This document shows positions 7,176 to 44,297 of a DNA stretch of 64,000 nucleotides, piece by piece (the first letter of the stretch is position 1; each line of letters opens with the position of its first letter). Both the position numbers and the translations under genes were made by a program. The notes under the pieces were generated by a model. The model was given only the letters and a program-made list of their open reading frames with translations, ran no database searches and was not told the DNA's origin. The stretch covers positions 20,127-84,126 of the forward strand of contig CAZROP010000001.1 in assembly GCA_964601935.1 (NCBI GenBank), read 5' to 3'. The stretch comes from an uncultured Candidatus Saccharibacteria bacterium (GTDB taxonomy: Bacteria; Patescibacteriota; Minisyncoccia; Phycocordibacterales; UBA1006).

Positions 7176-7263
7176 TGGCGGAGGGAGCGAGATTCGAACT
7201 CGCGAAGAGTTTCCCCTTGCCGGTTTTCAAGACCGGTGCCTTCAACCACTCGGCCATCCCTCC
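7176..7263 (-). tRNA. tRNA-Ser (anticodon TGA)
   Basis: Reverse complement: GGAGGGA acceptor, D-loop AGTGGTTGA, anticodon loop CTTGAAA, long variable arm, T-loop GTTCGAATC, 3' GCCA. Confidence 0.85.
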
Positions 7264-18427: not shown

Positions 18428-21400
18428 TTACTTGGGGCACCCAACCATCACCTTAATCTTAGCGCTCAGTGTAGGGGTATATGCTCCTGTCTCAGCCATA
18501 TTGAACCTCTTCTGCAACAAACGTACATACGCCTTGGACGACCTCCCATACACTCCGTCTATGACTACTTCACCTCTGAGGACATAGGCTATGAATCTCT
18601 GAAGATTAGTGATTGATGTCTTTGAGCTTGAGGACGATATGGTAGTGGCTGGTAATGCTGCACAGGCTTGTGCCAGTACTGCAGGCGGTAGTTTCTGTAT
18701 ATGGCAGAGCATATCAGAATGGAGAGGCAGTGTAGGTTCGGTGTCGAATACATTCGAGAAACCCCGCAGGTCTATTCCTGCTCCTGTGAGTATTGATACA
18801 CCAGGTGTTGTAGCATAGAGATCTCTTTGTGTAGGAGTGAGTTGTGAGTCTATAACCTTGTAGGCAGAGGTACAAGTAGGCAATACTTCTCCTCCTGATG
18901 CATAGGTTGTAGGCTTCTTAGTCTTCTTTGCATTATAGAGCTCTATCAGTTTTGTCATGAATGGATTACTGAGGATATTTGTTTCTACAGGTATATTGTT
19001 CTTCTTATGGAGATCAGTGATTGCTTTGGTTGTTGTTGTGTTTTGTCTTCCTGTGATAGTTGTTTTGTAACCTAGAGTACGAAGCATGGATTGGATGGAT
19101 TTCCAGTCTACTTTTCCGGTGGGGGTGGTGGTTGAGATGGGTGTAGTAGTAATTGCTGGAGGTAAAATTGTTGAGGTTGGTGTCTTTATGCAGCCCGTTG
19201 GAGTGAGGATGTGTGTTGAGGGGCAGCTGGGGGTGGAGGGTCCTCCTCCTCCTGAAGAAACAGAAGGTGCTGGGGTATAGACAATCAAAGCTTTATTTGC
19301 GCTCAAACTACCAGCTACACCAGGCGATGGAAGCAACAAACGTACCGGAGCCGTTTGTGCAGTGGTTGTTATGTTGCCTCCATTCAGATTGAGGGCACCT
19401 ACTGATGCGTAATCGAGATCAGAAGAAGTATCGCTTGGTCCCACAGTATAATTAAACGTTAGTGTATCAGTACCCGATCCCGAAATATAATTAGCCACTG
19501 CATCAGTCGCACCAGTCTCTAGTGTCAACTGCGGTGTTCCTGTGACGGTTACTGATTCACTGAATTGAATCAGAATATTAATGGTACCACCGTTCGTGTA
19601 CGAGCCATCCGAATTACCGGAAGCAACGTTGAGAATGGTAGGGACACTTATATCGAAAATCATAGTGCGATTCGCCGGCTCATCAGATACATAAAGCCTC
19701 TTATTTTGAGAATCTATCATGAGGTCAATAGGGTCTACGATACTGGATTGCGTGACAGCGGTACTATAGTTCAAAAAATTAGGTTGTCCGAGCACATTGA
19801 TAGCTGACTCTCCATTGGTGATATCTGCCACGTCAAATACAAGAACACGGGCAGCCGAGTAATCTGCGACAAACAATCTACTGTACACCTCATCATAGCT
19901 TAGCCCATTCGGCTCGCCACCAAAACCAGCTTGACCTCCGTTAGCGTTTGCTGTAACAAAATCAGGTTGTCCGAGCACATTGATAGCTGACTCTCCATTG
20001 GTGATATCTGCCACGTCAAATACAAGAACACGGGCATTACCACCATCTGAAACAAATAACCTTCGCTGAATAGCGTCATACGTAACCCCTGTAGCTTCGT
20101 CCATCTTACTCTGTGTCGTACCGACAGTGCAGGTAACAAAGTCAGGTTGTCCGAGCACATTGATAGCTGACTCTCCATTGGTGATACCTGCTATATCAAA
20201 AACAACAATACGGCGGTTGCTCCGATCTGAAACAAACAATCTATTTCCCGTCGGATCGAGCGATAAATAGCTAGGATTATTTAATCTTGAAGCTGAACAA
20301 GCACTTGTAATATTGCTGAAATTTGCTTGCCCCAAAACATTTACAGGAGCATCTCCGTTCTCTATAGTGGAAACATTCCATACGAGAACACGCTGCTTGT
20401 CCGCATCTGCCACAAACAGCCTGTTCTGCCCTGAATCATAAACGAGACCTGCAGCATAAGAAAATCCGTAGAACCCCCCCGAGGACGTATCCCAGAAATT
20501 CTGCTGCCCTAATACATAATCAGGTGTTTTGTCTACCAAGATATTTGATGAATTTAAGTTAAATACTAAAATACGAGAACCATCTGCCAAAAAAAGTCTA
20601 TGATTAGTATAATCAATCGCAAGACCTGCAGGCTGACTCAACCCATAAGGATTTATCTGCGTACCGTCGTTACTATCTTGTGTATAATAATCTACTTCTA
20701 GCCCATCATTATAAGTCGACTGCCCTACAGCGTCAATCGCATCTTCTCCATCAGTAATAGCTGTAGTATCAAATATCATTATACGGTTACTGCCAGTGTC
20801 TGATACATAGGTTCGATTATTGGTAGAGTCATAATATACTCCTTCTGGGGAACTAGTAACCCCTGTGTCCGCAAATCCAGATCCTGACTCAAAATCAGGC
20901 TGACCTAAAATATTAACCGCAGGCTCACCATTGGTAATAGTTGCTATATTAAACACTTTTACACCACTGCCCCCGCTCTCTGCAACATACAATCTATTAT
21001 TTGCTGCATCGTGGGCGATCGCATTGGGCTGATTCATGCCATCTTGGGTAATATTGTCACTAGCACTGACAAAATCAGGTTGACCTAGCACATTGATAGC
21101 GTTTTCTCCATCAGTAATAACTGTAGTGTCAAATACGAGAACTCGATGATTTGCGGTATCTGCAACATAGGCACGAGTTCCTGATGTATTGATCCCTATA
21201 CCCTGCGGGGCGAACATCCTGTTCTGTGAGGCGAGAGCTGAGCTTGTTGTAAAATTAGCTTGCCCGAGTACATTAGCTGCAGCCTGGCCATTAACAATAG
21301 AAGTAGTGTTATATATCACAGCACGATTATTACCTGTATCTGCAACGTATAAACGAGCATTGACACTATCGTATGCCAGTCTATACGGAATATTCAGACG

Positions 21401-21979
21401 CCCTGCAGCGAGCGTGCCTGTACCGCTAGTGAAATCTGCCTGCCCTAAAACATTAACAGCGCTCTCGCCATTGGTAATAGATGTAACATCAAATACTAGT
21501 ATTCGGTTATTAGAGGTGTCAGCGACAAACAATCTATTATTACCACTATCATGTGCTATTCCCTGCGGACCCTTCAACATCGTTTGTGTAGTACCCTCTA
21601 CGCGCAAGTAAAAACCCTGTTGACCCAATACAAAATCTGGAGTTTTGTCTACAAGCTGATTCGAGACATTGAGATTGAATACCAGCACCCTATTATTACC
21701 TGAATCAATGACAAACAAACGATGATTGCTGGCATCTAAGGTGGCTTGAGCGGGCCCATTCAATCCGTACGGCGTCATATCACCAGCGCCACCATTCTCG
21801 CTACTGCTAGTATAGCTCACTTCACCCCCCTCACGATTGACATACTGGCCAATAGCATCTATAGCATTCGCGCCATTCACAATAGCAGCATATGAATACA
21901 GCGGTATAGCACTTAGCACGGCTAGTGCAACGAACCCAATATATCGATAGACAGTATTCATGGTAATAGGTGATTTCAT
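18428..21979 (-). CDS. Giant secreted NHL-repeat beta-propeller protein (1183 aa) with C-terminal tandem PG_binding_1-like domains
   Basis: Signal peptide. More than 15 NHL-type repeats ('NNRVLVFD', 'NHRLFVAD', 'ITNGESAINVLGQPDF'). The C-terminal ~250 aa is shared with the 2116-aa protein and carries two peptidoglycan-binding-like repeats (LRTLGYKTTITG...; DGVYGRSSKAYVRLLQ). Confidence 0.7.
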   Translation of the reverse strand: MKSPITMNTVYRYIGFVALAVLSAIPLYSYAAIVNGANAIDAIGQYVNREGGEVSYTSSSENGGAGDMTPYGLNGPAQATLDASNHRLFVIDSGNNRVLVFNLNVSNQLVDKTPDFVLGQQGFYLRVEGTTQTMLKGPQGIAHDSGNNRLFVADTSNNRILVFDVTSITNGESAVNVLGQADFTSGTGTLAAGRLNIPYRLAYDSVNARLYVADTGNNRAVIYNTTSIVNGQAAANVLGQANFTTSSALASQNRMFAPQGIGINTSGTRAYVADTANHRVLVFDTTVITDGENAINVLGQPDFVSASDNITQDGMNQPNAIAHDAANNRLYVAESGGSGVKVFNIATITNGEPAVNILGQPDFESGSGFADTGVTSSPEGVYYDSTNNRTYVSDTGSNRIMIFDTTAITDGEDAIDAVGQSTYNDGLEVDYYTQDSNDGTQINPYGLSQPAGLAIDYTNHRLFLADGSRILVFNLNSSNILVDKTPDYVLGQQNFWDTSSGGFYGFSYAAGLVYDSGQNRLFVADADKQRVLVWNVSTIENGDAPVNVLGQANFSNITSACSASRLNNPSYLSLDPTGNRLFVSDRSNRRIVVFDIAGITNGESAINVLGQPDFVTCTVGTTQSKMDEATGVTYDAIQRRLFVSDGGNARVLVFDVADITNGESAINVLGQPDFVTANANGGQAGFGGEPNGLSYDEVYSRLFVADYSAARVLVFDVADITNGESAINVLGQPNFLNYSTAVTQSSIVDPIDLMIDSQNKRLYVSDEPANRTMIFDISVPTILNVASGNSDGSYTNGGTINILIQFSESVTVTGTPQLTLETGATDAVANYISGSGTDTLTFNYTVGPSDTSSDLDYASVGALNLNGGNITTTAQTAPVRLLLPSPGVAGSLSANKALIVYTPAPSVSSGGGGPSTPSCPSTHILTPTGCIKTPTSTILPPAITTTPISTTTPTGKVDWKSIQSMLRTLGYKTTITGRQNTTTTKAITDLHKKNNIPVETNILSNPFMTKLIELYNAKKTKKPTTYASGGEVLPTCTSAYKVIDSQLTPTQRDLYATTPGVSILTGAGIDLRGFSNVFDTEPTLPLHSDMLCHIQKLPPAVLAQACAALPATTISSSSSKTSITNLQRFIAYVLRGEVVIDGVYGRSSKAYVRLLQKRFNMAETGAYTPTLSAKIKVMVGCPK

Positions 21980-26140: not shown

Positions 26141-29140
26141 CTATCCATTACGGATTTTATCAACTAATTGTATAAAGTTACATTTTTTCGGATCCGGAGC
26201 GTGCTGCCAGTATTCACCTGACCGGATGTACTGCGCCATATGCTGTAGAAACAGTTCAAGTTCATCAATCTCTGCCTCATCAATTGTAAAGCGCTCTACC
26301 ACAAACTGCCCTGATTCCTTTGGCTCTACAAAATGCAGCACAGCATCATCCAGCTGATACGCACCCTCGCGGAAATAACGCAGCAACAGTTTGTAAAACT
26401 GCAACTGGCGGTAATAATTACCATCACTGGTTTTTGTCGCGCCTATGATATCATTACGACTTTTTGATTTGCCTGTTTTGAAATCAATCACGCGCACCCG
26501 TGAATCTGAATTACCTACAAATTCAAATCGATCAAGCGCACCCGACAGAGTGACATCAGCGCTTGGTAAAACTACTCCATTAATACGAAATTCAGAAAAA
26601 CCGCGTGTCTCCCATATGCCGTCATGCTCCTGGTACCATAATGGCAGCGTGCGCTCTGCCTGGGCACAGAGCCGTAGGTAGTCTGCATCAGCAACCGGCT
26701 CGCGACCTAACCTGGTACGAAATACTTGAACGAATCCTTCACTATTCAAAACCTCGCCTTGCGATGCTGATTTATATAATTGCTCTATCGCATAATGAAC
26801 AGCTGTTCCATACATCAGATTCGCTGATTGTAACTCTGGAATACGGATCAGATTTTTGCAGATATACTCCCAAGGATCTGCTAAAAAGTTATTCAAATGT
26901 GTCGCAGCGATAGGTCGAGACTCAAACAACGACAGTATGTATTCGTGAAATTCTTTTTGGGTATCAGTAGTTATACTAGGCACAGCAAGCTGTCGCTGTA
27001 ATAAATCTGTCTGATATTGCTCAACCAGGTCTGATACATCGACAGAAGTAATATGATTAGCATCCAGTTGCGATATAAACTGTGATGGCACCAATTCTCG
27101 ACCCTCTCCTGATCGTTCTGCATAAGATAGATGTAAGGCACTGCGTGCACGAGTTAGTGCGACAAAGAGCAGACGCCTCTCATCCCCATTTGATTCGTTA
27201 CCAGGAACACCATCGAATACTCTATCCAATATCTTTATGACATCTCTATTGGGGCGATTCCCCCATTTGCCGTCCACCAACATTGGAATATACACATGAT
27301 CGAATTCGAGCCCTTTTGATCGGTGTGCAGTCATGATGCGCACAGACCCAGTTCGTCCTCCCTGGACTGTGAGTTTTAACTTTTTCCCATGCGACTCTAA
27401 TGTGTCCAGATACTCTACGTATTCGCGGAATGTGCCACCCTCGGACGTGTGTACGAATCCAACGACATCATTGAACAATACTTGCAGCGCTGCAATATCC
27501 GAAGCCAGCTGATTGGATTGTAGATAATTAAATATCCCCAATCCATCAATAACAGACTGGAATACCACACTCGCATGATCTATCTGGGCAGATACATGCC
27601 AATTCATAATACGGTCTGCGAATGTCATGCATAGCTTGGGCTTGGTTACGCCAACCTTTTTCAATTCTAGTCCATCGGATAACAGATCTACCATGGTTGT
27701 GGTCTTTTTCTGGCTGGACGACCTGACGATACGCGCTACATCGATCGATGGAATGGTACACCACGGAGTATAGAGCATACGAGACAATGCTACGTTGTTA
27801 TGCGGGTCTTTGATAACCTGGAACGTTGCAATGATATGCCTAATTATTGGCGATTGCAAAATATCAATATCAGACTCTAGGCAATTAGAAATTCCTGCAC
27901 GAGATAACTCTGAAGCAATAATAGCCCCGTCTGTATTAGTACGTGTTAGTACGGCAATTTCTTCTGCAGGAGTTCCAGCCTGTATCAAGCTGGATACCCC
28001 TTGCACCACACCATACAGTTCAGATCCCGTGTCAGGGTATATCGATAGCTGCGCCTGCACAGGCTGACGCTCTGCATATGATTGTAGCTGCACAGGACCA
28101 GGTAGTAACGCATGTGCAATATCGAGAACCGATTGGTTAGAGCGGTAATTACTAGACAGGTGAATAATAGTAGCATTAGGATATTTTGCATGAAATCCAT
28201 AAAAGTATTCTGGTGATGCGCCCTGGAATCGATATACGGATTGTTTGTCATCACCTACTACAAAGATATTGGGGTTATCGTGGAAACTACCTACCAACTC
28301 CACGATACGATTCTGTACATTATTAGTATCCTGATATTCATCTACCAATATGTACTGATATTCCTCCTGAAGCCCTAGTAGAAATTCTGGATCTGATTCA
28401 CATACATTTACCAGCTCTGTAATCATGTCGGTGAAATCATACAGCTTTGCCTCGCGCATTGCAGCATCAAATCGTTCATACAGAGATACTAGTTCTAGGT
28501 TTTTTTCTATTTGTTTTTTCAGGTTAACATAGTCGGACTTCATTTTGCCTTTATGAACACCTTTTTCGTGGTGCAAATCATCGATACGATCAAAATCTGT
28601 CTGCGCATCAGTGACATGTCGCAACAATTGGGCTGGCGATATATGTTCGCGTTTCAGTGTATCAATAGCCGACAAAACACCATCGACATAGGCGGTATAA
28701 CTGTCATACCAGCGGATATAGACACCCATGTGCGAGCGCAACAATGACTCCACAATGCGAAGCTTGTCTACATCAGTAGCGAGTTGTGAACCCATAATAC
28801 GCGGGAATGATTCTGGATGTTCGGTGATAAGTTTCTGTGCTAACCCATGGAATGTATGCACATGTACCTCGTAGGCGTGTGACCCCATCATACGCGCCAA
28901 ACGTTTGCGCATATTACCTGCGGCAGATTCAGTAAACGTCAGCGCCAGAATAGCATCAGCCGGCGTATCAGTTGTGCGTACGATATTGGCGATACGCAAT
29001 GACAGAATTTGTGTTTTGCCAGTACCCGGACCAGCAAACACCATCACAGGACCATCCACTGTATCGACTGCCTGACGCTGTTGCGGGTTCAGCCGACGGT
29101 ACTGTTCATCGAATATACTAGTATCAGAAGTAGTAGGCAT
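26141..29140 (-). CDS. UvrD/PcrA-family superfamily-I helicase fused to a C-terminal PD-(D/E)xK (RecB-like) nuclease domain
   Basis: Walker A 'FAGPGTGKT'. Other helicase motifs: 'VDEYQDTN', 'TAHRSKGLEFD'. C-terminal 'VIDFKTGKSKS...YYRQLQFYKLLL' is nuclease-like (D...K...QxxY). Start set at MPTTSD (29140). An in-frame upstream extension to 29269 would add a Gly/Trp/Arg-rich peptide encoded by a GC-rich tract and is probably not real. Confidence 0.7.
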   Translation of the reverse strand: MPTTSDTSIFDEQYRRLNPQQRQAVDTVDGPVMVFAGPGTGKTQILSLRIANIVRTTDTPADAILALTFTESAAGNMRKRLARMMGSHAYEVHVHTFHGLAQKLITEHPESFPRIMGSQLATDVDKLRIVESLLRSHMGVYIRWYDSYTAYVDGVLSAIDTLKREHISPAQLLRHVTDAQTDFDRIDDLHHEKGVHKGKMKSDYVNLKKQIEKNLELVSLYERFDAAMREAKLYDFTDMITELVNVCESDPEFLLGLQEEYQYILVDEYQDTNNVQNRIVELVGSFHDNPNIFVVGDDKQSVYRFQGASPEYFYGFHAKYPNATIIHLSSNYRSNQSVLDIAHALLPGPVQLQSYAERQPVQAQLSIYPDTGSELYGVVQGVSSLIQAGTPAEEIAVLTRTNTDGAIIASELSRAGISNCLESDIDILQSPIIRHIIATFQVIKDPHNNVALSRMLYTPWCTIPSIDVARIVRSSSQKKTTTMVDLLSDGLELKKVGVTKPKLCMTFADRIMNWHVSAQIDHASVVFQSVIDGLGIFNYLQSNQLASDIAALQVLFNDVVGFVHTSEGGTFREYVEYLDTLESHGKKLKLTVQGGRTGSVRIMTAHRSKGLEFDHVYIPMLVDGKWGNRPNRDVIKILDRVFDGVPGNESNGDERRLLFVALTRARSALHLSYAERSGEGRELVPSQFISQLDANHITSVDVSDLVEQYQTDLLQRQLAVPSITTDTQKEFHEYILSLFESRPIAATHLNNFLADPWEYICKNLIRIPELQSANLMYGTAVHYAIEQLYKSASQGEVLNSEGFVQVFRTRLGREPVADADYLRLCAQAERTLPLWYQEHDGIWETRGFSEFRINGVVLPSADVTLSGALDRFEFVGNSDSRVRVIDFKTGKSKSRNDIIGATKTSDGNYYRQLQFYKLLLRYFREGAYQLDDAVLHFVEPKESGQFVVERFTIDEAEIDELELFLQHMAQYIRSGEYWQHAPDPKKCNFIQLVDKIRNG

Positions 29141-29345
29141 ATGGGAGTAGTGTAGCACGCCGTGCAAAGACACAAACCCCACCCTAACCCTCCCCTTTTC
29201 TAGGGGAGGGAACCTGCAGGAACGGCTGCGAGCCGCCCTCCACCACCCCATTCCCCAACCACTTGACACAGCGCAATTAGTCAGTACTATATAACTTCGT
29301 TTTAGAAACAGTTATTTATTAACCTTATTCAAACATCTTTCGCAT

Positions 29346-30731: not shown

Positions 30732-30793
30732 TGGTTATCCACAAATTATATCCCGAGCCGCAACTTGGCCCCCATACAGACGCTATAATATAT

Positions 30794-31912
30794 TTGTATA
30801 TGAAAACACCCTACCTAGTATCTCTCATTGTATTACTCGCGACCGGCACCTACGCCCTCGCTCAACTCACCCCACCTCTCCAAACACCTACCTGTAGTCC
30901 TACATCAGCAGGGTGTCAGATAGCACCTCCTATCAATGCAGGAACATATTATCAGGAGAAGAAGTCTAATGTGGTGGTACGTTTGCCTGTTGCATCTTCA
31001 AGTATTCTTCCCTTCTTGGATCCTACATGGAATCCTGTACTACAGAACTATCCTGCAGCGACTCCTTCTCATTTTGGGTTTGATACTAACGGTTATGTAC
31101 GTGGACAGGGTGTGATTGCGAATAAAACGTTGAAGGTTGGAAAGGATTGGGTTATTACAACACCGAATACACCTCCTGTGGGCGAGTTGTTTATTCCTTA
31201 TGCGTCGGAACCGCAAACTAGTACCGTCTCAGAGCGACCTCTCTGTGTAGTCAAGGGTACCGGCCTCATAAAAAGGTGTGTATCTGCAACGACTGTAGCA
31301 GAACCATCAGTTAACGTCACGGCATCTACAACAGCACTGGGTAGTGCTGGAGGTAATGTTACCTACACATGGACATCTACGAATACAGACTCCTGTGGAT
31401 TCATAAATGGCCCATCATATATCAGTTATGTGCCCGGAGGAACACCTAGCAATACATCCGGCAGCGTTGCGATGGCATATCCTGCAAACTCTTCAGGAGC
31501 ACATCGGCAGTACAAATTCGGAGTCTATTGTTACAAGGCTGTAACAGGTGGCGCCAACAAAACAGTTATTGATGACGTAGCACTGACTGTATTCGGCAGC
31601 ACTCCACCACCGCCATTACCTACCGTAACGGTTCTAACTCCTATCGAAAGCCATGATCTTGATAACCCAAATACGCCGTTTACTGTGCAGTATGAAGTAG
31701 CCAATGCAACATCATGTGCATACTCATGGAATACTCGACCTGCTAGCAGTACATTTACTCCTGTTAGTCAAACAACACCGACAAATGGTATCTATTCACT
31801 AACTCTAAACCTATTACCTGCGGGTCCTAGTACTCATTACGGGGTGAACATAACCTGTACCAACAGTACAGGTAGTACCACCCAGTGGTATCGAATTTAC
31901 TACGGAATATAG
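30794..31912 (+). CDS. Secreted Thr/Ser-rich protein, paralog A of a tandem pair
   Basis: Signal peptide MKTPYLVSLIVLLATGTYALA. The first 426 nt are identical to the downstream paralog. Divergent Cys-containing Thr/Ser-rich C-terminal half. Confidence 0.55.
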   Translation: MYMKTPYLVSLIVLLATGTYALAQLTPPLQTPTCSPTSAGCQIAPPINAGTYYQEKKSNVVVRLPVASSSILPFLDPTWNPVLQNYPAATPSHFGFDTNGYVRGQGVIANKTLKVGKDWVITTPNTPPVGELFIPYASEPQTSTVSERPLCVVKGTGLIKRCVSATTVAEPSVNVTASTTALGSAGGNVTYTWTSTNTDSCGFINGPSYISYVPGGTPSNTSGSVAMAYPANSSGAHRQYKFGVYCYKAVTGGANKTVIDDVALTVFGSTPPPPLPTVTVLTPIESHDLDNPNTPFTVQYEVANATSCAYSWNTRPASSTFTPVSQTTPTNGIYSLTLNLLPAGPSTHYGVNITCTNSTGSTTQWYRIYYGI

Positions 31913-32097
31913 TAATGGTGAGTAATCTACTCACTGATTCCTTACAAAACAGCCTCAACTTCTGAGGCTGTTTTGTTTGGTATAGAGAAATCTATTATCA
32001 ATAAAGGTTATTACTGTTTCAGTTACAACTTTATCCACAAACAGAGGAATCCTGGAACAACTATTGAGTAATGGAACACGTTATACTGTATCTACCT

Positions 32098-33315
32098 ATG
32101 AAAACACCCTACCTAGTATCTCTCATTGTATTACTCGCGACCGGCACCTACGCCCTCGCTCAACTCACCCCACCTCTCCAAACACCTACCTGTAGTCCTA
32201 CATCAGCAGGGTGTCAGATAGCACCTCCTATCAATGCAGGAACATATTATCAGGAGAAGAAGTCTAATGTGGTGGTACGTTTGCCTGTTGCATCTTCAAG
32301 TATTCTTCCCTTCTTGGATCCTACATGGAATCCTGTACTACAGAACTATCCTGCAGCGACTCCTTCTCATTTTGGGTTTGATACTAACGGTTATGTACGT
32401 GGACAGGGTGTGATTGCGAATAAAACGTTGAAGGTTGGAAAGGATTGGGTTATTACAACACCGAATACACCTCCTGTGGGCGAGTTGTTTATTCCTTATG
32501 CGTCGGATCATCAGACAAACGCAAAGTCAGAAAAGGTTCTCTGCGTCGCAAAGGGAACGGGTCTAATAAAACAGTGTAGCCCTGCAACAGTCCCAACCCA
32601 GGGAACAACTGCCAGCACACCACTGACTGCAACATTAACAGCATCACAATCAACTGTCACAACGACTGTACCCAGCTCTATTTTGACCTGGACATCAACA
32701 GGCGCTACTGAATGTTATCCGGTGAGTGGATGGGGGTTTGATTTTAATACTCGCGCAATATCAGGGACAGAAACAGTGACTCTTACCAACCCCACATCAC
32801 TGTTCGGCGATAACTCGACATTTATTGTAGCCTGTACGAATGCAGCACAGAACGTGGTCTTTGCCTCTACCAAAATTAATGCTGACCTACGTCCTGTTAT
32901 AGGTACATTCTGTGCAACACCGTATAAAAACCTTGGATCAGGTTGGCAGCCTACAGGGGGATGTACCAAAGTCATAAATGGTGCGTACGACAATAACGAA
33001 TACTTTGTTACTCACCTGAACGTGACCAGCCCTAATGGGTCACCAGTACAATGTAAAGCGCGAACAGTTGCTAGTAATATTGCAGGATCTAACACGTGGA
33101 GCTTCCTCGCAAGTGGTGTGTGGACGACATCAAAGACTGTACCAACAGGGGTAATCGTCAGTGGCGGCACACCTAATGCTTGTCTGAATGGCTGTCAGTA
33201 TGATGAAATTGTCTCTGCTCCTTATACTTCTGCACAACTGCAAGTAGAATGCACCAATACTGCAGGAACATCTGGCGATAGCATCATTCTTACCACAGGA
33301 CTATCTACTGATTAG
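32098..33315 (+). CDS. Secreted Thr/Ser-rich protein, paralog B of a tandem pair
   Basis: Same 142-aa N-terminus as paralog A, then an unrelated C-terminal half. Start placed at the Met that begins the identical block. Confidence 0.55.
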   Translation: MKTPYLVSLIVLLATGTYALAQLTPPLQTPTCSPTSAGCQIAPPINAGTYYQEKKSNVVVRLPVASSSILPFLDPTWNPVLQNYPAATPSHFGFDTNGYVRGQGVIANKTLKVGKDWVITTPNTPPVGELFIPYASDHQTNAKSEKVLCVAKGTGLIKQCSPATVPTQGTTASTPLTATLTASQSTVTTTVPSSILTWTSTGATECYPVSGWGFDFNTRAISGTETVTLTNPTSLFGDNSTFIVACTNAAQNVVFASTKINADLRPVIGTFCATPYKNLGSGWQPTGGCTKVINGAYDNNEYFVTHLNVTSPNGSPVQCKARTVASNIAGSNTWSFLASGVWTTSKTVPTGVIVSGGTPNACLNGCQYDEIVSAPYTSAQLQVECTNTAGTSGDSIILTTGLSTD

Positions 33316-33332
33316 GCTCATAATTAAATATA

Positions 33333-33363
33333 AAACCCCTCGCACTTGCGAGGGGTTTTATTT
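33333..33363. terminator. Bidirectional hairpin terminator between paralog B and typA
   Basis: AAACCCCTCGCACTTGCGAGGGGTTTTATTT, a GC stem flanked by A/T runs on both sides. Confidence 0.6.
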
Positions 33364-33396
33364 CATGACTTACAACTTCAAATTAAAGTAACTATA

Positions 33397-35193
33397 TTAC
33401 TTAGATCTTCCACCACGTGCACGCTCTGATTCTGTCAGATACTGCTTGCGCAAACGTACAGATTTTGGTGTGATCTCTAACAACTCATCATCTTTCATAA
33501 CCTCCAAGCCTCGTTCGATACTCAACGTATACGGGGGTACGAGGTTAATCGCCTCGTCGTTACCACTCGAACGAACATTGGACTGGTTCTTACCTTTTAT
33601 AGGGTTTACCGTCATTTCTTCTCCCTTGCTCGTGTTTCCAATAACCATTCCTTCGTATACCGGCTCTGCGTGACCAATATAGAGCAGTCCGCGATCCTGT
33701 AAATTCCACAGGGCATACCCTGCAGCAACTCCTGAAATCATAGAAATCATAGATCCAGCAATATGTTTTTTGATTTCACCTGCATGAGGACGGAATGCCA
33801 AGAAACGAGCAGCAATGATACCGAGCCCCTTTGTCGCAACAACAAACTCTCCACGATAACCAATCAGTCCGCGTGTAGGAATTTCGAATGTAAGACGTGT
33901 TGTTTTATCGCGTTCTTCCATATTCATCAGCATGCCTTTGCGGCGATTCACTGTATCAATAATTCCTCCAGAAAATTCTGTAGGAACATCAATAGTCAAC
34001 TCTTCGTACGGCTCAGTGATACTACCATCTTCCTCTCTCCGTGTTATTGCTTGTGGCTGAGACACTGCCATTTCGAATCCTTCGCGACGCATTTGCTCCA
34101 ACAACACAGCTATATGCAGCTCACCACGTCCACAGAGCAGTGCATTACCGTCCTCGAATGTGATTCTCATACCAACGTTCGTTTCCAATTCTCGTTCTAA
34201 TCGTTCTTTAATCTGGCGCCCTGTTACAAATTTGCCCTCCTTTCCAGCGAACGGAGAGTCATTTGCCATAACCACCACTGATATGGTTGGCTCATCAATA
34301 GCAATAGACGGTAACAAAGGCGTGTCGAGGTCGGTTACGATCGTCTCTCCAATCATTGCGTTAGCATTTCCTGCTATTACTCCAATATCACCTGCTGATA
34401 ATACCGGAACAGCTTCACGCTCAATGCCGCGAAATGAGTAGAGTTTTGTAATACGGAATGTTGTCTTGCTGCCATTCCCATCAACTGAGTGTACCTGAGA
34501 GCCGTCTTTTATAGACCCCTGGTACACGCGCGCTACAGACAAACGACCCAAGAAATTATCATAACCCAGAGAAAAGGTCTGAGCCTGAAATGGTAAGTCA
34601 ACAGTTAGCGCTGCGTTTGAAGTATGCTCCAACACAGTGTCCAGCAATGGTGAAAGATCAACTTTATCATCATTCAGATTCTTCATCGCAACTCCCTCGC
34701 GACCGATTGCATATACGACAGGAAATTCTATTTGATGATCGTCAGCCCCTAATTCCAGGAATAATTCGAGTACAGCATCCAGCGTAGCTGCCGGGTTTGC
34801 TGCTGGCTTGTCAATTTTGTTCAATACCACAATAGGTCGCAATCCTAATTCCAAAGATTTCTTTAACACAAAACGTGTCTGAGGCATGGGGCCTTCCTGG
34901 GCATCTACCAGAAGTAGCACAGTATCAATAGAGCGTAGTACACGCTCTACCTCGGATCCGAAATCAGCGTGACCCGGTGTGTCTACAATATTTATTTTTA
35001 TATCTTTCCATACCAGCGAGGTATTTTTTGCATAAATAGTAATACCTCTCTCCCCTTCCAGCTGATTACTGTCCATGGTACTACCCTCGTTCCATACACC
35101 ACAAAACTGCATTAGCTTGTCAGTAAGCGTGGTCTTGCCGTGGTCAACATGGGCAATAATTGCAATATTTCTAATATCAGAGAATTGTGACAT
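33397..35193 (-). CDS. typA: Translational GTPase TypA/BipA
   Basis: 'IAIIAHVDHGKTTLTD' G1 motif; EF-G-like domain order; 598 aa, typical of BipA. Confidence 0.9.
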   Translation of the reverse strand: MSQFSDIRNIAIIAHVDHGKTTLTDKLMQFCGVWNEGSTMDSNQLEGERGITIYAKNTSLVWKDIKINIVDTPGHADFGSEVERVLRSIDTVLLLVDAQEGPMPQTRFVLKKSLELGLRPIVVLNKIDKPAANPAATLDAVLELFLELGADDHQIEFPVVYAIGREGVAMKNLNDDKVDLSPLLDTVLEHTSNAALTVDLPFQAQTFSLGYDNFLGRLSVARVYQGSIKDGSQVHSVDGNGSKTTFRITKLYSFRGIEREAVPVLSAGDIGVIAGNANAMIGETIVTDLDTPLLPSIAIDEPTISVVVMANDSPFAGKEGKFVTGRQIKERLERELETNVGMRITFEDGNALLCGRGELHIAVLLEQMRREGFEMAVSQPQAITRREEDGSITEPYEELTIDVPTEFSGGIIDTVNRRKGMLMNMEERDKTTRLTFEIPTRGLIGYRGEFVVATKGLGIIAARFLAFRPHAGEIKKHIAGSMISMISGVAAGYALWNLQDRGLLYIGHAEPVYEGMVIGNTSKGEEMTVNPIKGKNQSNVRSSGNDEAINLVPPYTLSIERGLEVMKDDELLEITPKSVRLRKQYLTESERARGGRSK

Positions 35194-35273
35194 AGCTGTT
35201 CTAAACTATCATACACAGGCAGTATTGTCAAAACAGCGAAGGATTACACCCTGCTATCAATAAGGTGTGTTTA

Positions 35274-36155
35274 CTACATCTGGTGTAGCCGTGCTATACG
35301 TTCCTCCACAGGAGGATGTGACGCCAGTAATCGTGCAGGTGCCAGCGAACCGAATGGATTACTAATATACATATGGGCTGTCGCCGTATGAGCATGCTCC
35401 AGAGGATGATCATAACTACTGATTTTACTCAACGCATTCGCCAATCCACGAGGGTTACCGGTGATCAGTGCACCGGTACTATCTGCCAGGTACTCTCGCT
35501 TTCGTGATACTGCAGCTACAATCATTGCTGCGCCTATCTGCGCCAGTATTCCTGACACGATTACTGCAACGAATCCCAGAATTCCGCGACTATCATCATC
35601 TCCTAATAATGCATTTCTACCGAGCATGTCAGCCACAATTGCGACAAACCCTGCAACAATGGTCGCCACCGACATCAATAATATATCTTTGTTTCCAATG
35701 TGCGCCAATTCATGGGCTATTACTCCTGCAAACTCTTCTTGATCCAAACGTTGTATTAAACCTACAGTCACCGCAACAGCGCTATGATCTTTATTACGAC
35801 CCGTTGCAAATGCGTTAGGCGCTTGGTCTGGAATTATGTAGAGGCGCGGCATAGGCAGTTGGGCACGCATGGTTAACTCGCGTACAGTGCGATAATAGTT
35901 GGGATATTCTAATTCTGTAGCCAACTCAGCACCTGCCATTCGTATAGCAATCTTATCAGAAAACCAATATGATACGATATTCATTACTACAGAAAACCCT
36001 ATCATGATATAGAGAAGTGAAGGGTTCTGAAAACGAACTGATAGCCAATAACCAATGGCGATTACGACGACCAGAAACAATCCCATAATTGTATAGGTCT
36101 TTGTCGTAGCTGCAGCCTGGTGGGTAAATAACTTTGACTGTATAAATTGTGCCAT
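35274..36155 (-). CDS. htpX: M48-family zinc metalloprotease HtpX
   Basis: Two N-terminal TM helices, a 'HELAHIGNKD' HExxH motif and downstream Glu; 293 aa. Confidence 0.8.
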   Translation of the reverse strand: MAQFIQSKLFTHQAAATTKTYTIMGLFLVVVIAIGYWLSVRFQNPSLLYIMIGFSVVMNIVSYWFSDKIAIRMAGAELATELEYPNYYRTVRELTMRAQLPMPRLYIIPDQAPNAFATGRNKDHSAVAVTVGLIQRLDQEEFAGVIAHELAHIGNKDILLMSVATIVAGFVAIVADMLGRNALLGDDDSRGILGFVAVIVSGILAQIGAAMIVAAVSRKREYLADSTGALITGNPRGLANALSKISSYDHPLEHAHTATAHMYISNPFGSLAPARLLASHPPVEERIARLHQM

Positions 36156-36283
36156 ATGCCATCATTATACTTGAAAAGCTAGTAAAAAAGAATACACTAG
36201 GCTAGTTCTATACGAATCAGCAATTAGCAGATAATCAACGTTAGATCCTATATCTAGAGAGGATCGACACCTACTACAACCTT

Positions 36284-36883
36284 ATGTCACTACTCGACTA
36301 CAACGAAATTCGCGAAAAGAAGGTAATTATTTATGACGATGAACCGTGCCTGGTAGTATCATCCCACGTCGCACGCACACAAATGCGCAAGCCGACCAAC
36401 CAAACAAAACTGAAATCGCTCATTTCTGGAAAGGTATTCCAGGCAGTATTCCAGGCAAGCGATCGCGCAGAAGAGGCCGACATTGAAAAACGTGTTTCAA
36501 AGTTTCTCTACGCACAGCCACAGAAAAACGAGTGGTGGTTTGCCACTATCGAGGACACCAAGGATAGATTCAAACTAACAAGAGACGAGATTGGTGAAGC
36601 GGCAAAATGGATTCGTGAAGGATCTGACGTTACCATTAAATTCTTTTTGAAAGATGATGACGAAGAAGTAGTGATTGGAGCAGAAACACCTATAAAGGTA
36701 GAGCTGACAGTAAAGGAAGCGCCCCCTAATGTACGTGGTGACACTGCAACAGGCGGGCGCAAGACCGTTCTACTAGAGAACGGAACCGAGTTATCGGGTG
36801 TACCATTATTTATAGAGGCTGGTGATATTATTCGCATCAACACCGAACTAGGTGAATATGTGGAACGTGTAGAAAAACGATAG
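36284..36883 (+). CDS. efp: Elongation factor P
   Basis: KOW-like N-terminus plus two OB domains; ~190 aa; EF-P conserved pattern (GK..A...T). Confidence 0.75.
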   Translation: MSLLDYNEIREKKVIIYDDEPCLVVSSHVARTQMRKPTNQTKLKSLISGKVFQAVFQASDRAEEADIEKRVSKFLYAQPQKNEWWFATIEDTKDRFKLTRDEIGEAAKWIREGSDVTIKFFLKDDDEEVVIGAETPIKVELTVKEAPPNVRGDTATGGRKTVLLENGTELSGVPLFIEAGDIIRINTELGEYVERVEKR

Positions 36884-36886
36884 TGA

Positions 36887-36920
36887 AAAGCCCTCACCTA
36901 GGTGAGGGCTTTTCACTATC
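36887..36920. terminator. Bidirectional hairpin terminator between efp and the giant minus-strand gene
   Basis: GTGAAAAGCCCTCACCTAGGTGAGGGCTTTTCAC is a perfect palindrome. Confidence 0.6.
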
Positions 36921-36923: not shown

Positions 36924-39900
36924 TTATTTGGGGCATTCAGCCAGTGTTTTGAGCTTTGCACCCAACACCGCGGTATATACTCCCGTTTCTGTAAGTCCTA
37001 ATCGGTTTTGTAGCAATCTGATATATGCTTTAGATGACCTCCCATACACTCCGTCTACTACTATTTCTCCTTTCATTACGTACGCTATGAATCTCTGTAA
37101 TGAGGCTACAGATGACTTAGGACTGAGTGAAGATATAGTTGTTAGTGGAAGAGCTGAACAAGCAGTCTCTAATACAACGTCAGGGATACCTGACACATGA
37201 CATTGAATATCACTGTGTAATGGAAGTACGGGGTATGTATCGAACGCACGAGAGAACCCACGCAAATCGATCCCCTTCCCAGTCAAAATGGTAACATTCG
37301 GTAAACTACCATACACAGCTTTCTGGTCAACAGATAACTGTGAATCTATAACCTTGTAGGCAGAGGTACAAGTAGGCAATACTTCTCCTCCTGATGCATA
37401 GGTTGTAGGCTTCTTAGTCTTCTTTGCATTATAGAGCTCTATCAGTTTTGTCATGAATGGATTACTGAGGATATTTGTTTCTACAGGTATATTGTTCTTC
37501 TTATGGAGATCAGTGATTGCTTTGGTTGTTGTTGTGTTTTGTCTTCCTGTGATAGTTGTTTTGTAACCTAGAGTACGAAGCATGGATTGGATGGATTTCC
37601 AGTCTACTTTTCCGGTGGGGGTGGTGGTTGAGATGGGTTGCGTTGAAGAAAGAGTAGGTGTTGGTATATCTGCAGCTTTAGTGACAATCGGAACAGGGAT
37701 GATTGGTATTACTCCACCGCCCCCACCAGAAGAAGACTGTGGTGGAGTAACTATTAGGGGAGAAAACCATCCCGTGGTATTTCCTACGTTAGTGCTGTTG
37801 GCAGGATCTACAGGAGTGGAAAAGACTGATGAATTGTCAGTAATGACACTATCCTTGATCGATAGAAATCCCGAACTTACAAAGGTAGAACTACCAGCCA
37901 TATCTATGGTTGCAGCAGTGTCCGGCATAGAAGAAACTATTGAGAGCCTATCGTTTGCATCTAGACCATTTAGAGTGAGCACTCCTGCTACAGTCTGGGT
38001 ACCACCTGTTGGTAATGTAATGACAGCAGGAGTAGAATTGTTAGAACTATCAGAAAAAGTAAGGTTGTTCCAGGTAGTGGCACCAGTGAGAGCGTGGTCG
38101 TCGCCCGAACTGAATACTACAGTACCGTTGTTATGGTTAAAGGTTCCTGTGTTGGTGAAGGTGCCAGCTATATTAAGAGTGTCTGAAGGGGCGGTGAACG
38201 TTCCTTGGTTAACCATACTACCTGTACCACCACCTGTATTCAGAGTAATTGTCTCTCCCGACGTAAACATAGATCCTGAAGGAATAAAAAATGTACCCGC
38301 CGTTATAAAGACAACTTCGTGAGGTAGAGTGCCCATGAGGCTACTTATGGGTATACTGGGGTCACCACTTTTTGCAAGCACCAGATCTGCGTTGGTCATT
38401 GCTCCATCAGAAATACGTAAAATCTTATCCAGCGCCAGGTGTCCTTCATGGTCGACAAAATCACCACCTACTAACACCTTTCCGCCAGGCTGCACTGCAA
38501 ATGAATACACACTTGCACTAAGCGCTGATGGAATGAACGTAGTATCTCGTGTTCCGTCCGTGTTCAGACGAGTTATTTTATCTAGATTAGATTGACCATT
38601 ATAGTCATTAAAATTTCCACCTACCAGAATCTTTCCATCTGGCTGCAGAGCTAATGTATACACACCTGCCCCAAACCCTGCTGGAACCATGAAACTTGTA
38701 TCTCGTGTTCCGTCCGTGTTCAGACGAGCGATTCTATCCAAATTAGGCTGAGCATCATAATTTTGGAACTCTCCTCCTACAAGTATCTTTCCATCTGGCT
38801 GTATCACAATATTATATACATAATCACTGAGAGCTACCGACGGAACGAATGTTGTATCTCGTGTTCCATCAGCGTTGATACGAGCCAAATAAGCAAGCTC
38901 TGGCAGAGCATCGTAACTCTCGAAGAATCCTCCTACAAGTATCTTTCCATCTGGCTGGATCGCCGCGCTCTGCACGATCTGGCCAAATGCCACCGCAGGA
39001 GCGAACGTTGTATCTCGCGTTCCATCAGTATTCAGACGAGCAATTCCGTCCAGATTGGGCTCCGAATCATAATCTGTAAAACTACCTGCAATTACAATAC
39101 GCTCATCAGCATCTAGATTAATAGAGGATACAGAACCCGTCGAAGCACCGACCGGGATAAAACTAGTGTCACGACTACCGTTCGTATTCAGACGAGCAAT
39201 CCTATCCAGGTTAGCCTGCGCACCATAATCAGTAAAACCACCACCGACCAAAATCTTTCCATCTGACTGTAAAGCCAATGAATTTATACTTGCGTTAAAC
39301 GCGGCAAAAATAGAGAAGCCTGTATCTCGTGTTCCGTCAGCATTAAGACGAGCAATATAGTCCAGATTAGCTTGACCATCGTAGTCGGTGAAATTTCCAC
39401 CTATAACTATCTTCCCATCAGGCTGAACAACTATTGCATTAACAGTATTATTCAATGATGCGGCTGGAGAAAATGCAGGATCGTTAATTCCACCCCTATC
39501 CAATCCCCACACCGTCACCCTATCAGCATAAATATCCAACCCCGTGAGACTGATACCATCTTTTCTAGCCACAGCCACCCCTGCCTCGTCCTCAATATAC
39601 AGAGTAATGATATCGCCATCGTAAAGCTGTACTCCGCTAAATGAATACGCGCCACCACTAGTTACAGCTGTATTTATAGATACACCATTAACAAACAGTT
39701 GCACCGTAATATTATCCGCCACAGGGGTTATGCCATCATTAGCATATACATTTCCCGATATAGTATACCTAGGAGGAAATGCCATATCCAAAACAGAGAT
39801 AAAAGCATCTGTGCCTCCTGCTAATTCTGCCTGATATACTCCTGCAGTCGTAGGAAACGCCGTACCTGTTTGCCCTGTTAGGTATATATTATTGGTAGAA

Positions 39901-42900
39901 TCGAGAGTTATAGCGTAACCAATATCATTATTGGCTGATCCACCCAGGTATGTACTTGCGATCAAGTTTGTAAGATTACTAGGAAATTGTGATATGAAAG
40001 CATCTTGTGTACCACCAATAACAGTATCATATGCTCCAATCGTTGTAGGAAATCCTGTTCCCCCTACTAACCCTGTTACGTATACGTTATTGGTAGAATC
40101 GATATCTATACTATAGCCACTATCTATATTACCTGTGCCACCGAGGAGTGTGCTGGCGGTAAGACTGGCGAGTGTGCTTGGTAGCTTTGAAATAAAGATA
40201 TCTGCTGCACCGCTCAAACTCGTGTCATAAGCACCAACCGTTGTTGGGAACGCTGTTGCTGCTAAACCTGTGACATAAACATTGTTGCTGGAATCCAGGG
40301 CTATGTCGTAGCCAGTATCATTACCTGTACCACCGAGGAGTGTGCTGGCGGTAAGACTGGCGAGTGTGCTTGGTAGCTTTGAAATAAAAGCGTCGCGCGA
40401 TCCACCGATAACAGTATCATATGCTCCAATTGTTACCGGAAAAGTAGATTCTGCCTGACCTGTCACATAAACATTGTTGCTGGAATCCAGGGTTAGGTTA
40501 TACGCGATGTCTGTATTCGTCCCACCGAGAAATGTACTCGCGGTGAGGGTTGCAAGACTACTAGGAAGTATCGATATAAAAGCATCGCTGCCACCTCCCA
40601 CAGTTGTATCATAAGCACCACCCGTTGTCGGGAACGCTGGCCCAGCACCACCTGCCACATAAACATTGTTGCTGGAATCCAGGGCTATACCGTAACCAGT
40701 ATCAATGCCCGTTCCGCCCAGAAAGGTACTAGCTGTCAGGCTAGTTAGCGTGCTCGGAAGTACTGACACAAAAGCATCAGTAGAGGCACCCCCACTAAGC
40801 GCAGTCTGATATGCTCCGACTGTTGTAGGAAAACCTGTTGCTGCAGAGCCTGTGACATAAACATTGTTGCTGGAATCCAGAACTATATCATATCCAATAT
40901 CAGAACCTGCCCCTCCCAAGTAAGTCGCAGCTGCAAGCGTCGTAAGTCCGTTATTGAATTTATAAATCACTACATCCTCAGCACCACCATATGTAGTATC
41001 ATAAGTTCCTGCGCCAGCTGGCGAGTGACTCCTGGATTGACCAACCATATAAATATTACCAGATGTATCGACTGTAATACCGCGACCTATATCATTACCC
41101 GTTGAACCAATTTGATCGCCTCCATACAATGTGCTGGCGGTCAACGCCGTGAGATTGCTGGACAACTTGGAAATAAAAACATCTTGTGATGCGCCTAGCG
41201 TAGTGTCATAAGCACCACCTGTTGTCGGGAACGCTGTTGCAGCTGTACCAGTTATATACACATTATTAGTGGCATCCAATGCTATATCATTCCCAGCTTC
41301 AGTGCTGGTACCACCTAAAACTGTACTCGCAGTCAATGTAGCGAGAGTACTGGGAAATACGGAGACAAAGGCATCCGTACCGCTCACAGTTGTATCATAA
41401 GCACCACCTGTTGTCGGGAACGCTGTTGCAGCATCGCCTACGACGTACACATTGTTACTAGCGTCTAATATAATTCCTCGCCCTATATCAGTACTACTTC
41501 CACCTAGAAATGTACTCGCGGTGAGGGTTGCAAGATTGCTGGGAAGTATCGATATAAATGCATCAGTACCACTAATAGTGGTATCATATGCGCCCACTGT
41601 TGTAGGAAAACCTGTTGCTGCTTGACCTGTAATATATACATTACTACTGGAATCTACTGCAATATCATTACCTGCATCTGCACCAGATCCGCCAAGATAT
41701 GTGCTAGCATTCAGAGTAGTGAGATCGGCAGGTAACGCAGCAACAAATGCATCCAATGAACTACCTCCATACGAAATATCATACGCCCCGACAGTCGTTG
41801 GAAAACTCCCCGACGTACTACCTGTCAGATACAGCATATTTCCTGTACCCCACACCATACTTACTGCCCTATCGTTGCCCGATCCGCCCAGATATGTGCT
41901 AGCATTCAGAGTAGTGAGATCTGGAGAAAATACGGTTATAAAAGCATCTGTGGTCGAACCCCCATGTGTTATCTGGTAACTTCCAGCTGTTACAGGAAAC
42001 CCCGATGCCGCCTCTCCTGCTATATAAATCGCATTATCAGCACCCACCAGTATGCTGGTACTTCCTTCATTACTCGCGGCACCACCTAGAAATGTGCTAG
42101 CAGTTAAGGTAGACAAATCATTAGTGAGTTTCGAAACGAATACATCAACAGTACCACCACCAAAAGTAGGCTGATAGACACCTGCTGTGGTTGGAAATCC
42201 ACTTGCAGCAGTCCCGACTATATAGACATTGCCTGAACTATCCAGTGCAATATCATTGCCTGTATCTGCACCAGACCCTCCTAAAAATGTTTGCCCCTGC
42301 AAGGTCGTCATTGCATCATCGAACTTTAGCACTAGAATATCACCCAAACCATTCGGTGTCGTATCATAGCCTAGACCTGTTATGGTTGGATCGCCTGTTC
42401 TACCTATTATAAAGACAGAATTATTATGCCATACAATACCGTTGCCTGTTTCGAGCTCTGTATACGACTCACCCCCTACATACGTACTCGCCAACAACGG
42501 ATCAATATATAACATATGTGTTGTATCATATTCTCCAACATCGAATCCGTAGGAGTCATTGTTTTGATAAAGTGTGTACTCTACATCTACGGATACTTTT
42601 TCTCCATTGATGTATTGAAAAGCAACAGGTGCGGTCATACGAACACCTCCTGCCCGGGTATTAATTATCAGTTCTCCTGTATCTTCATCGATAGAGAGGT
42701 CTTCTATACCTTCTATTGCAACCTGAATAGTGTCTGGTGATGACTGCGGTGATACGTTGAATATCTTTTCTATATTCTTTTGATAGGCGCGCAGAGTTAC
42801 ACCTATGCCTGGCCATACTAGTGTAAACTCTAAATCTTTATGAGTGTTCAGGTCAGTTTCCCATTTACTAGAATCATCGCCTATGAATCGTGATACTGTT

Positions 42901-43532: not shown

Positions 43533-44297
43533 ATGCATAATCTGCCTATAAAACCCGTATACCGTCCCAAACATATGACACTAGAAGAAATACGTGATGG
43601 ATGTATCACACTCACCAATGGGGATAACATTGAAACACGGGTGTGTATCGCTCAAGAAGAACTCCGCCAAGGCATCGACATGGTTGCACGTTATCCACGA
43701 TCGGTAACAATGTATGGATCCGCACGAATCACCGAGGACCATCCTGACTACCAGCGAGCACAGCGCATCGCACGACGTGTTGTCGCAGAACTAGGTTATG
43801 CAGTTGTTACCGGGGGAGGTCCTGGAATAATGGAGGCTGCTAACCGTGGTGCGACAGAAGCAGGTGGTGTATCCATAGGTCTCACTATTCGACTACCTCA
43901 CGAGCAGTACACTAATCCATATGTAAACGTAGAGGTTCCTTTTTATTACTTCTTCACACGAAAAACTACCCTATCGTTTTCGTCAGAGGCATACCTAGCA
44001 TTTACGGGAGGATTTGGAACATTCGATGAAATATTTGAAATAATCACCCTGATGCAAACAGGTAAAATACCCCGCGTCCCTGTTCTGTTGGTAGGATCAG
44101 CGTTCTGGACACCTTTGATTAACGCTACGCGTCATACATTACTGGATACATATCACACTATTTCCTCATCTGATATGGACTTATTTACAATAACCGACGA
44201 TGAAGATTTTATAGTCGAAACAATCCGAAAAGCACCAGCACGAGATACCGCCATTACAGAAGATCCTTCTATCGACTCTGTCGCATACGCTGAATAA
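43533..44297 (+). CDS. LOG-family protein (TIGR00730; cytokinin riboside 5'-monophosphate phosphoribohydrolase-like)
   Basis: 'MYGSARI...AVVTGGGPGIMEAANRGA' and 'PGGFGTFDE' are hallmark LOG motifs. Confidence 0.75.
   Translation: MHNLPIKPVYRPKHMTLEEIRDGCITLTNGDNIETRVCIAQEELRQGIDMVARYPRSVTMYGSARITEDHPDYQRAQRIARRVVAELGYAVVTGGGPGIMEAANRGATEAGGVSIGLTIRLPHEQYTNPYVNVEVPFYYFFTRKTTLSFSSEAYLAFTGGFGTFDEIFEIITLMQTGKIPRVPVLLVGSAFWTPLINATRHTLLDTYHTISSSDMDLFTITDDEDFIVETIRKAPARDTAITEDPSIDSVAYAE

Follow-up and report, generated by a model that had tools for sequence, protein, structure and literature searches.

Two adjacent genes, pA (30800–31912, 370 amino acids, protein P0001, 8 cysteines) and pB (32098–33315, 405 amino acids, 12 cysteines), lie on the forward strand of a 64,000-nucleotide stretch of contig CAZROP010000001.1 from an uncultured Candidatus Saccharibacteria bacterium. 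This stretch is called the window below, and all positions refer to it. Both genes were delimited by open reading frames (ORFs) and homologue alignment. Their 5' parts are identical to the base. It is probable that pA and pB are old tandem paralogs in which gene conversion has kept the 5' tract identical while the remainder of the genes diverged. A previous sequence-only reading of this DNA had described pA and pB as secreted paralogs with a constant N-terminal part, and this description is borne out.

An ungapped comparison places the identical tract at 30799–31209 (5' end of pA) and 32097–32507 (5' end of pB), both on the forward strand: 411 nucleotides without a mismatch at an offset of 1298. 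The tract begins one nucleotide 5' of the ATG, runs through 136 codons, and breaks off before the third base of codon 137, which is GAA in pA and GAT in pB (E/D). The homogenised share makes up the first 37% of the gene. The sequence-only reading had reported a repeat of 426 bp (30794–31219 equal to 32098–32523) with about 142 identical codons. A long perfect direct repeat is indeed present, but its real extent is the 411 nucleotides given above, and the identical codons number 136. Position 30794 is an upstream TTG taken from a mechanical ORF call; the common start is the ATG at 30800/32098. The reported endings of the two copies, YASEPQTS versus YASDHQTN, are correct, and so is the statement that the identity does not include the upstream region. 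A global alignment of the regions 5' of the two ATGs is no better than shuffles (p 0.13), and these regions share only a -10-like hexamer at equal distance and an 11-mer.

The synonymous sites carry the argument. As determined by the Nei–Gojobori method, codons 1–136 have no change at any of 103 synonymous or 305 non-synonymous sites. Such identity does not come from purifying selection, since purifying selection cannot remove synonymous differences. The next 29 codons, 137–165, occupy 31208–31294 in pA and 32506–32592 in pB (forward strand) and mark the 3' border of the tract. They align without a gap, with 51 of 87 nucleotides and 17 of 29 amino acids (59%) identical, and retain the LCVxKGTGLIKxC loop in both genes. 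The proportion of synonymous differences here is 0.80, i.e., saturated, and that of non-synonymous differences is 0.28, as expected for anciently diverged counterparts. Thus, divergence between pA and pB goes from zero to saturation at one nucleotide, within one gene and with homologous sequence on both sides. A tract devoid of synonymous differences beside a homologous flank of high synonymous divergence is what gene conversion between old paralogs leaves behind, and this part of the sequence-only reading, gene conversion as the cause of the identity, is upheld.

Beyond the tract, the likeness between the two proteins declines stepwise. The comparison is aided by P0003, a full-length metagenomic homologue of 355 amino acids from another organism (phmmer E 1.8e-25, 35% identical). 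Domain 1, the next ~100 residues (31295–31597 in pA and 32593–32883 in pB), is barely alike when pA and pB are compared directly (Smith–Waterman z 1.9). Measured against shuffles in the same way, domain 1 of pA (z 8.3) and domain 1 of pB (z 9.4) are each clearly similar to domain 1 of P0003, and a profile of pA and P0003 matches domain 1 of pB with an hhalign E of 2.9e-5 over 72 columns. The last domains are of two types: A-type in pA (31598–31909, ~104 amino acids, 2 cysteines), which is common with P0003 (Smith–Waterman z 4.5 to its second domain), and B-type in pB (32884–33312, ~143 amino acids, 8 cysteines). A Smith–Waterman comparison of these two gave z 3.1, but hhalign gave E 0.65 with only a short xCTNxxG motif in common, and their homology is thus not demonstrated. 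The protein identity between pA and pB is therefore 100% in codons 1–136, 59% in codons 137–165, about 30% in domain 1 and about 20–29%, not significant, in domain 2. The identity between pA and P0003 over the same four segments is flat, at 42, 37, 30, and 31%. In codons 137–165, pA and pB are closer to each other (59%) than either is to P0003 (37–41%). A conversion domain that shrinks over time would be expected to leave such a stepwise gradient. The view that the genes diverge completely after the tract has to be given up, in light of the 17 of 29 residues and the homologous domain that follow it. Of the claim that the C-terminal halves are otherwise unrelated, only the part concerning the last domain stands; the linker with its cysteine loop and domain 1 are homologous.

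The age of the pair is indicated by the contig that encodes P0003, a Joint Genome Institute contig of 1551 nucleotides (L001; Ga0502769_0260762 of metagenome 3300050211). P0003 is located at L001:472–1539, and the 3' end of another gene lies directly upstream (L001:2–271). The last 90 amino acids of that gene are 39–44% identical to the B-type domain of pB (tblastn E 2.6e-7, Smith–Waterman z 15.9), the upper value of 44% applying to the match of the pB C-terminal domain with this 3' end. A hairpin and then a TATAAT box, 10 nucleotides before the P0003 ATG, separate the two genes. A-type and B-type genes are thus adjacent in an organism whose proteins are only 35–44% identical to those of the window, which would place the duplication before the split of the two organisms. 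On this single contig, the paralogs appear to be older than the identical tract. The gene order in L001 is B-type then A-type, the reverse of that in the window, and the arrays of the L001 organism may be larger or rearranged.

The following course of events would account for these data. A duplication would have given rise to the pA/pB pair before the two organisms separated. RecA-type non-reciprocal recombination, i.e., gene conversion, would then have kept the 5' tract identical in a process of concerted evolution. The convertible region seems to have shrunk with time: earlier tracts may have reached farther in the 3' direction, and codons 137–165 would since have escaped and diverged. The 5' border probably lies where detectable homology ends, at the ATG. 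The 3' border may be set by an indel-prone linker after the IPYAS motif, where heteroduplex extension would stop; P0003 carries a 4-residue insertion in this variable linker, directly after the invariant IPYAS.

The contig is metagenome-assembled, and short reads cannot span 411 nucleotides of identity. It could be imagined, then, that a single gene with two strain alleles differing in their 3' parts had been stitched into a false tandem. To us this is a most improbable account, given an independent k = 31 Logan assembly of run SRR13208906, which was entered via the exact TypA protein encoded beside pB. Three Logan contigs correspond at 100% to the window up to 30828, to 31180–32126, and to 32478–36908, and each stops exactly 30 nucleotides (k-1) inside a repeat border. 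The contig with the mutY-like gene ends at 30828, 30 nucleotides inside copy 1, and the contig 32478–36908 stops 30 nucleotides inside the 3' end of copy 2. A contig covering 31180 to ~32127 had been predicted beforehand, and it was found via its truncated product: 947 nucleotides, 31180–32126, consisting of the pA tail, a unique 185-nucleotide spacer, and the first 30 nucleotides of copy 2. The spacer has its own terminator and promoter, and through it the pA tail is joined to the start of the repeat; of the other two contigs, one leads from the mutY-like gene into the start of the repeat, and the other from the end of the repeat into the pB tail and typA. The only linear path that uses all contigs runs from the mutY-like gene through the repeat, the pA tail, the spacer, and the repeat again to the pB tail and typA. 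Two alleles would instead give a bubble that rejoins downstream, with no loop back to the repeat start. In addition, the contigs are recorded in two samples each. This topology implies a tandem arrangement with both copies in one molecule, and the concern that the duplication arose in assembly is thereby answered in the negative.

If the tandem is real, the tract could also stem from a recent duplication of the whole gene, after which the 3' two-thirds of one copy were replaced from a diverged imported allele. A true tail swap of this kind would fit the very sharp border, the 29 flanking codons, which are homologous yet synonymously saturated as an imported divergent allele would make them, and the lack of significant similarity between the upstream regions. 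However, both tail types already stand in tandem in a distant relative, which suggests that they are old residents and not swapped-in cassettes, as the sequence-only reading had them. The G+C content and the G+C content at third codon positions (GC3) of both tails match those of the host genome, and no donor turned up in any collection searched. A recent duplication should also have copied the promoter and terminator, whereas the identity starts only 1 nucleotide before the ATG. The tail swap is therefore unlikely and less economical than gene conversion. Programmed variation or delivery, in the form of antigenic-variation cassettes, a polymorphic toxin, the target of a diversity-generating retroelement (DGR), or pilin subunits, was considered as well. 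The layout with a constant N-terminus and a variable C-terminus speaks for it, as does the fact that the proteins are secreted, and Patescibacteria depend on surface contacts with hosts (PMC12206443). Nevertheless, we regard this explanation as very unlikely. There are two copies only, both of them full genes with promoter-like and terminator elements, and the 64 kb contain no silent cassettes or template repeats. No significant reverse transcriptase motif and no toxin or immunity domains or ORFs were found.

The individual system types were rejected on the following grounds. Silent-cassette antigenic variation of the pilE/pilS or vlsE type does not agree with two copies that are both complete, each with a -10 box and a terminator. 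For a polymorphic toxin (CdiA/Rhs/MafB-like), no toxin domain was found in Pfam or NCBIfam, there is no room for an immunity ORF, and the pA tail is predicted to be immunoglobulin (Ig)-like. A DGR target is not indicated, with a repeat that is 100% identical, no other repeat of the locus in the 64 kb by low-stringency blastn, and an Exo_endo_phos protein as the only ORF with a Y.DD motif. The signal peptide is an ordinary one of the Sec/signal peptidase I (SPase I) type and not of class III (G, cleavage, then F/M-xxx-E), which argues against a type IV pilin. A sortase-anchored pilin or adhesin is opposed by the lack of LPXTG in a regular-expression search and of a C-terminal membrane anchor. 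The suggestions of swapped cassettes, toxin-like architecture, and pilin-like subunits are accordingly not supported for what is probably a pair of complete old paralogs.

Several points weigh against gene conversion between old paralogs as set out above. No RecA motif is present in the 64-kb window. The age of the pair is read from one short contig, from 90 amino acids of a pB-like neighbour, and with the gene order reversed. In domain 1, P0003 is no closer to one of the two proteins pA and pB than to the other, and the last domain is thus the sole basis for assigning orthology. Conversion may be ongoing, or a single recent event may have produced the tract. The repeat may be present in a copy number higher than two, or the population may be mixed, and the Logan assembly may share reads with the deposited genome. 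The pB tail would be beta-rich and Ig-like only via the homology of its domain 1, as judged from the sequence. Finally, the N-terminal domain has no confident model (pLDDT, the predicted local distance difference test, is below 50) and no database match, so the functional part of the proposal is inferred only.

Both proteins are predicted to be Sec-exported, disulfide-rich, and of one layout. The N-terminus of both is MKTPYLVSLIVLLATGTYALA, followed after the cleavage site by QLTPP, an ordinary AxA Sec/SPase I signal peptide. In pA, the signal peptide spans residues 1–22 (cleavage between ALA and Q), and it is followed by the N-terminal domain (~23–136), the linker with the cysteine loop (137–165), Ig-like domain 1 (166–266), and the A-type Ig-like C-terminal domain (267–370), the Ig-like assignments being those of the model. 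In pB, the same signal peptide and N-terminal domain are followed by the diverged linker and cysteine loop, domain 1 (166–262), and the B-type domain (263–405). The cysteine counts are even in both, with the pairs C32/C39 and C149/C160 in the shared part, and threonine (14–15%) and serine (9–10%) are abundant, in agreement with the signal peptide, cysteines, and Thr/Ser richness noted earlier. The C-termini read ...WYRIYYGI in pA and ...LTTGLSTD in pB. The public model of pB, P0002 (414 amino acids), starts at 32071, nine codons upstream of the shared ATG. The additional residues, MEHVILYLP, lie ahead of the -10-like box and disrupt the signal peptide. The start of P0002 is probably mis-set, 32098 being the start common to pA and P0003.

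No part of pA or pB matches Pfam (including its Ig families), NCBIfam, PHROGs, or PDB sequences. AlphaFold2 predicts for residues 166–370 of pA two beta-sandwiches, all-beta, with a pLDDT of ~60–80, i.e., moderate confidence; these comprise domain 1, with its TWTSTNxxxC ... C pattern, and the C-terminal domain. For residues 1–165, the pLDDT remained below 50 in both runs (single sequence and 3-sequence alignment). A Foldseek search of the PDB with the pA model gave 39 matches at E <= 1e-3, and for the pA tail tandem Ig modules were best, with E of ~6e-5 (TrkA ectodomain, titin Z1Z2, RPTP Ig1-2, RbmA). The C-terminal half of pA is thus predicted, with moderate confidence, to consist of two Ig-like domains. 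The N-terminal domain, which measures ~140 amino acids and is confined to this lineage, had no match in Pfam, NCBIfam, PHROGs, or PDB, either as a single sequence or as a profile.

The family seems to be almost unique. A phmmer search of 1.84 billion representatives returned only pA, pB, P0003, and P0004, and word-indexed searches with pA and with P0003 as the query, made against 5.8 billion protein clusters, added no member. Back-translated patterns were scanned against the GTDB representative genomes, with two pattern sets against metagenome contigs, and against viral contigs, and revealed no further copy; tblastn together with low-stringency blastn of the locus against the 64-kb window revealed no third one. 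Weak tblastn matches at 12589–12663 and 6482–6520 proved to be ribosomal-protein genes or otherwise unrelated. The search for additional copies of the N-terminal module that the sequence-only reading had called for thus ended with the two in the window. P0004 is a protein of 2180 amino acids with peptidoglycan-binding domains; it matches the pA tail only via Ig-like repeats of the form LTWTSTNAxSC...C (phmmer E 3.3e-6 over six stretches). The family total is pA, pB, P0003, and the fragment upstream of P0003, that is, three or four members of a secreted family among ~15 billion predicted proteins, with an N-terminal domain that has no recognisable fold. The best matches of TypA among species representatives are Patescibacteria metagenome-assembled genomes at 60–63% identity (labelled Paceibacterota, Nomurabacteria, and Saccharibacteria), and no pA/pB homologue lies beside typA in the 80 typA loci fetched. 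A motif of surface proteins of the Candidate Phyla Radiation (CPR), PxNxGxxxQxKxGxL, was found by regular expression in the window and 84 loci only in pA, pB, and P0003; no link is drawn from it.

In mechanism, the locus comes closest to the concerted evolution of bacterial paralogs, and it belongs to no described protein family. The duplicated genes tufA and tufB of Salmonella evolve in concert by RecA-dependent gene conversion. The concerted evolution of duplicated bacterial genes was reportedly reviewed by Santoyo and Romero in 2005. As in pA/pB, the identity of tufA and tufB includes synonymous sites, the tract has sharp borders, and the paralogs are older than the tract. In contrast, the tuf genes are homogenised whole and their products are equivalent, whereas in pA/pB this holds for only the first 37%, the rest having diverged as far as a change of domain type. 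In the pilE/pilS system of Neisseria and the vlsE system of Borrelia, a single expression site is accompanied by many silent cassettes that lack promoters, and it is the variable part that conversion diversifies. They resemble pA/pB in that gene conversion acts on surface-protein genes with constant and variable parts; however, both pA and pB are complete and look expressed, and here the constant part is the one that conversion homogenises.

The babA/babB(/babC) genes of Helicobacter pylori are paralogous surface-protein genes with a near-identical coding part that includes the 5' end; chimeras arise by intragenomic gene conversion, and the divergent segment carries the binding specificity (PMC4552749). 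The bab genes and pA/pB have in common that surface or secreted paralogs own a near-identical 5' end by gene conversion. Bab proteins, however, are outer-membrane beta-barrels encoded at dispersed loci, identical at both ends with a divergent middle, and subject to phase variation by CT repeats. The pA and pB genes lie side by side, share identity only at their 5' ends, are unrelated in sequence to bab, and come with no simple-sequence repeat and no known ligand. Giant wall-anchored proteins of the Patescibacteria type, such as P0004, show the same LTWxSxNAxxC...C repeats as the pA tail, with the W...C...C pattern and a predicted beta-sandwich. Unlike them, pA and pB are small (370 and 405 amino acids), lack the PG_binding_1 anchor, and have a unique N-terminal domain that is absent from P0004. 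The phenomenon as such is well known from Helicobacter, Neisseria, the tuf genes, and others, and no new mechanism is required.

As to function, the constant N-terminal domain may serve a purpose common to both proteins, e.g., it could dock both of them to one envelope or partner structure. The diverged C-terminal domains might confer two binding specificities on the surface of a cell that probably lives attached, as an episymbiont. The 411-nucleotide direct repeats could themselves recombine, which would either delete the pA tail and bring the pB tail behind the pA promoter or amplify the unit. Taken further, the N-terminal domain would be an undescribed, lineage-restricted docking module that continuous conversion keeps compatible with its partner while the tails explore ligands, and the repeats would be a recombinational switch; we find this rather unlikely. 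If it were true, pop-out deletion would remove pA and leave the pB tail driven by the pA promoter, unequal exchange would multiply the unit, and a minimal-genome episymbiont would have a cheap means of surface variation. If pA and pB mediate attachment to host cells, the locus is a candidate for host-range determinants. Be that as it may, it offers a very clear case of partial concerted evolution in a CPR/Patescibacteria genome of reduced size, a setting in which surface variation through recombination is hardly documented.

Each gene has its own -10-like box and strong hairpin, so pA and pB appear to be separate transcription units. TATAAT at 30784–30789 (forward strand) lies 10 nucleotides before the pA ATG, with no Shine–Dalgarno motif and in the same layout as before P0003, and is a probable short-leader or leaderless promoter; before pB, TATACT stands at 32082–32087 (forward strand), also 10 nucleotides from the ATG. 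Folding indicates a terminator-like hairpin after pA at 31944–31976 on the forward strand (14-bp stem, -27.4 kcal/mol, z -6.5). A second one at 33330–33361, between the convergent pB and typA (14-bp stem, -23.4 kcal/mol), is probably a bidirectional terminator. The gap after pA is 185 nucleotides with its terminator, and that between pB and typA is 81 nucleotides. The shared 11-mer, TTATCCACAAA, is located at 30735–30745 (forward strand), 65 nucleotides upstream of the pA ATG, with a second copy at 32031–32041, 67 nucleotides upstream of the pB ATG. These are the only TTATCCACA (DnaA-box-like) sites in the 64-kb window, and 24 of 100 shuffles give at least two. The 11-mer may be due to chance, a remnant of homology, or an operator; its number alone is not significant, and the matching positions are curious.

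The promoter layout is not confined to this locus. A TATAAT-like hexamer occurs 3–16 nucleotides before the start in 18 of 39 long ORFs of the window vs. ~10% at random positions, e.g., upstream of 17517–18350, 35274–36155, 43533–44297, and 44629–46443, and a Shine–Dalgarno-like motif is present in 1 of the 30 ORFs checked. This pattern in the DNA suggests leaderless or very short-leader mRNAs genome-wide; literature searches on leaderless translation in Patescibacteria and on the sample accessions found nothing. The G+C content of the window is 43%, and both tails have the same G+C and GC3 as the genes around them. The neighbouring genes have housekeeping roles, i.e., a UvrD/PD-(D/E)XK helicase-nuclease (26141–29269), the mutY-like HhH-GPD glycosylase, typA, htpX, and efp, with genes of glycolysis and the pentose-phosphate pathway farther along, and there are no mobile-element genes among them.

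A few further features of the window may be mentioned. The product of 4662–5873 (forward strand), 403 amino acids long, carries the SduA_C nuclease domain of Shedu (Pfam E 4.4e-18), an anti-phage defence family; in this small CPR genome, the gene adjoins two tRNA-Ser genes at 5970–6057 and 7176–7263. Three large proteins encoded on the reverse strand (47–2086, 18428–21979, and 36924–43274) end in a PG_binding_1 domain. Their other parts comprise Bact_surface_Ig-like, NHL beta-propeller repeats, and DUF5122/SBBP beta-propeller repeats with DUF7948 (2116 amino acids). They are taken to be wall-anchored surface proteins, and pA and pB lack such an anchor. The Logan contig that covers pB (L002) ends at 36908 inside a 30-nucleotide perfect inverted repeat (36891–36920), and this repeat is likely to be the terminator hairpin that separates efp from the gene for the 2116-residue protein.

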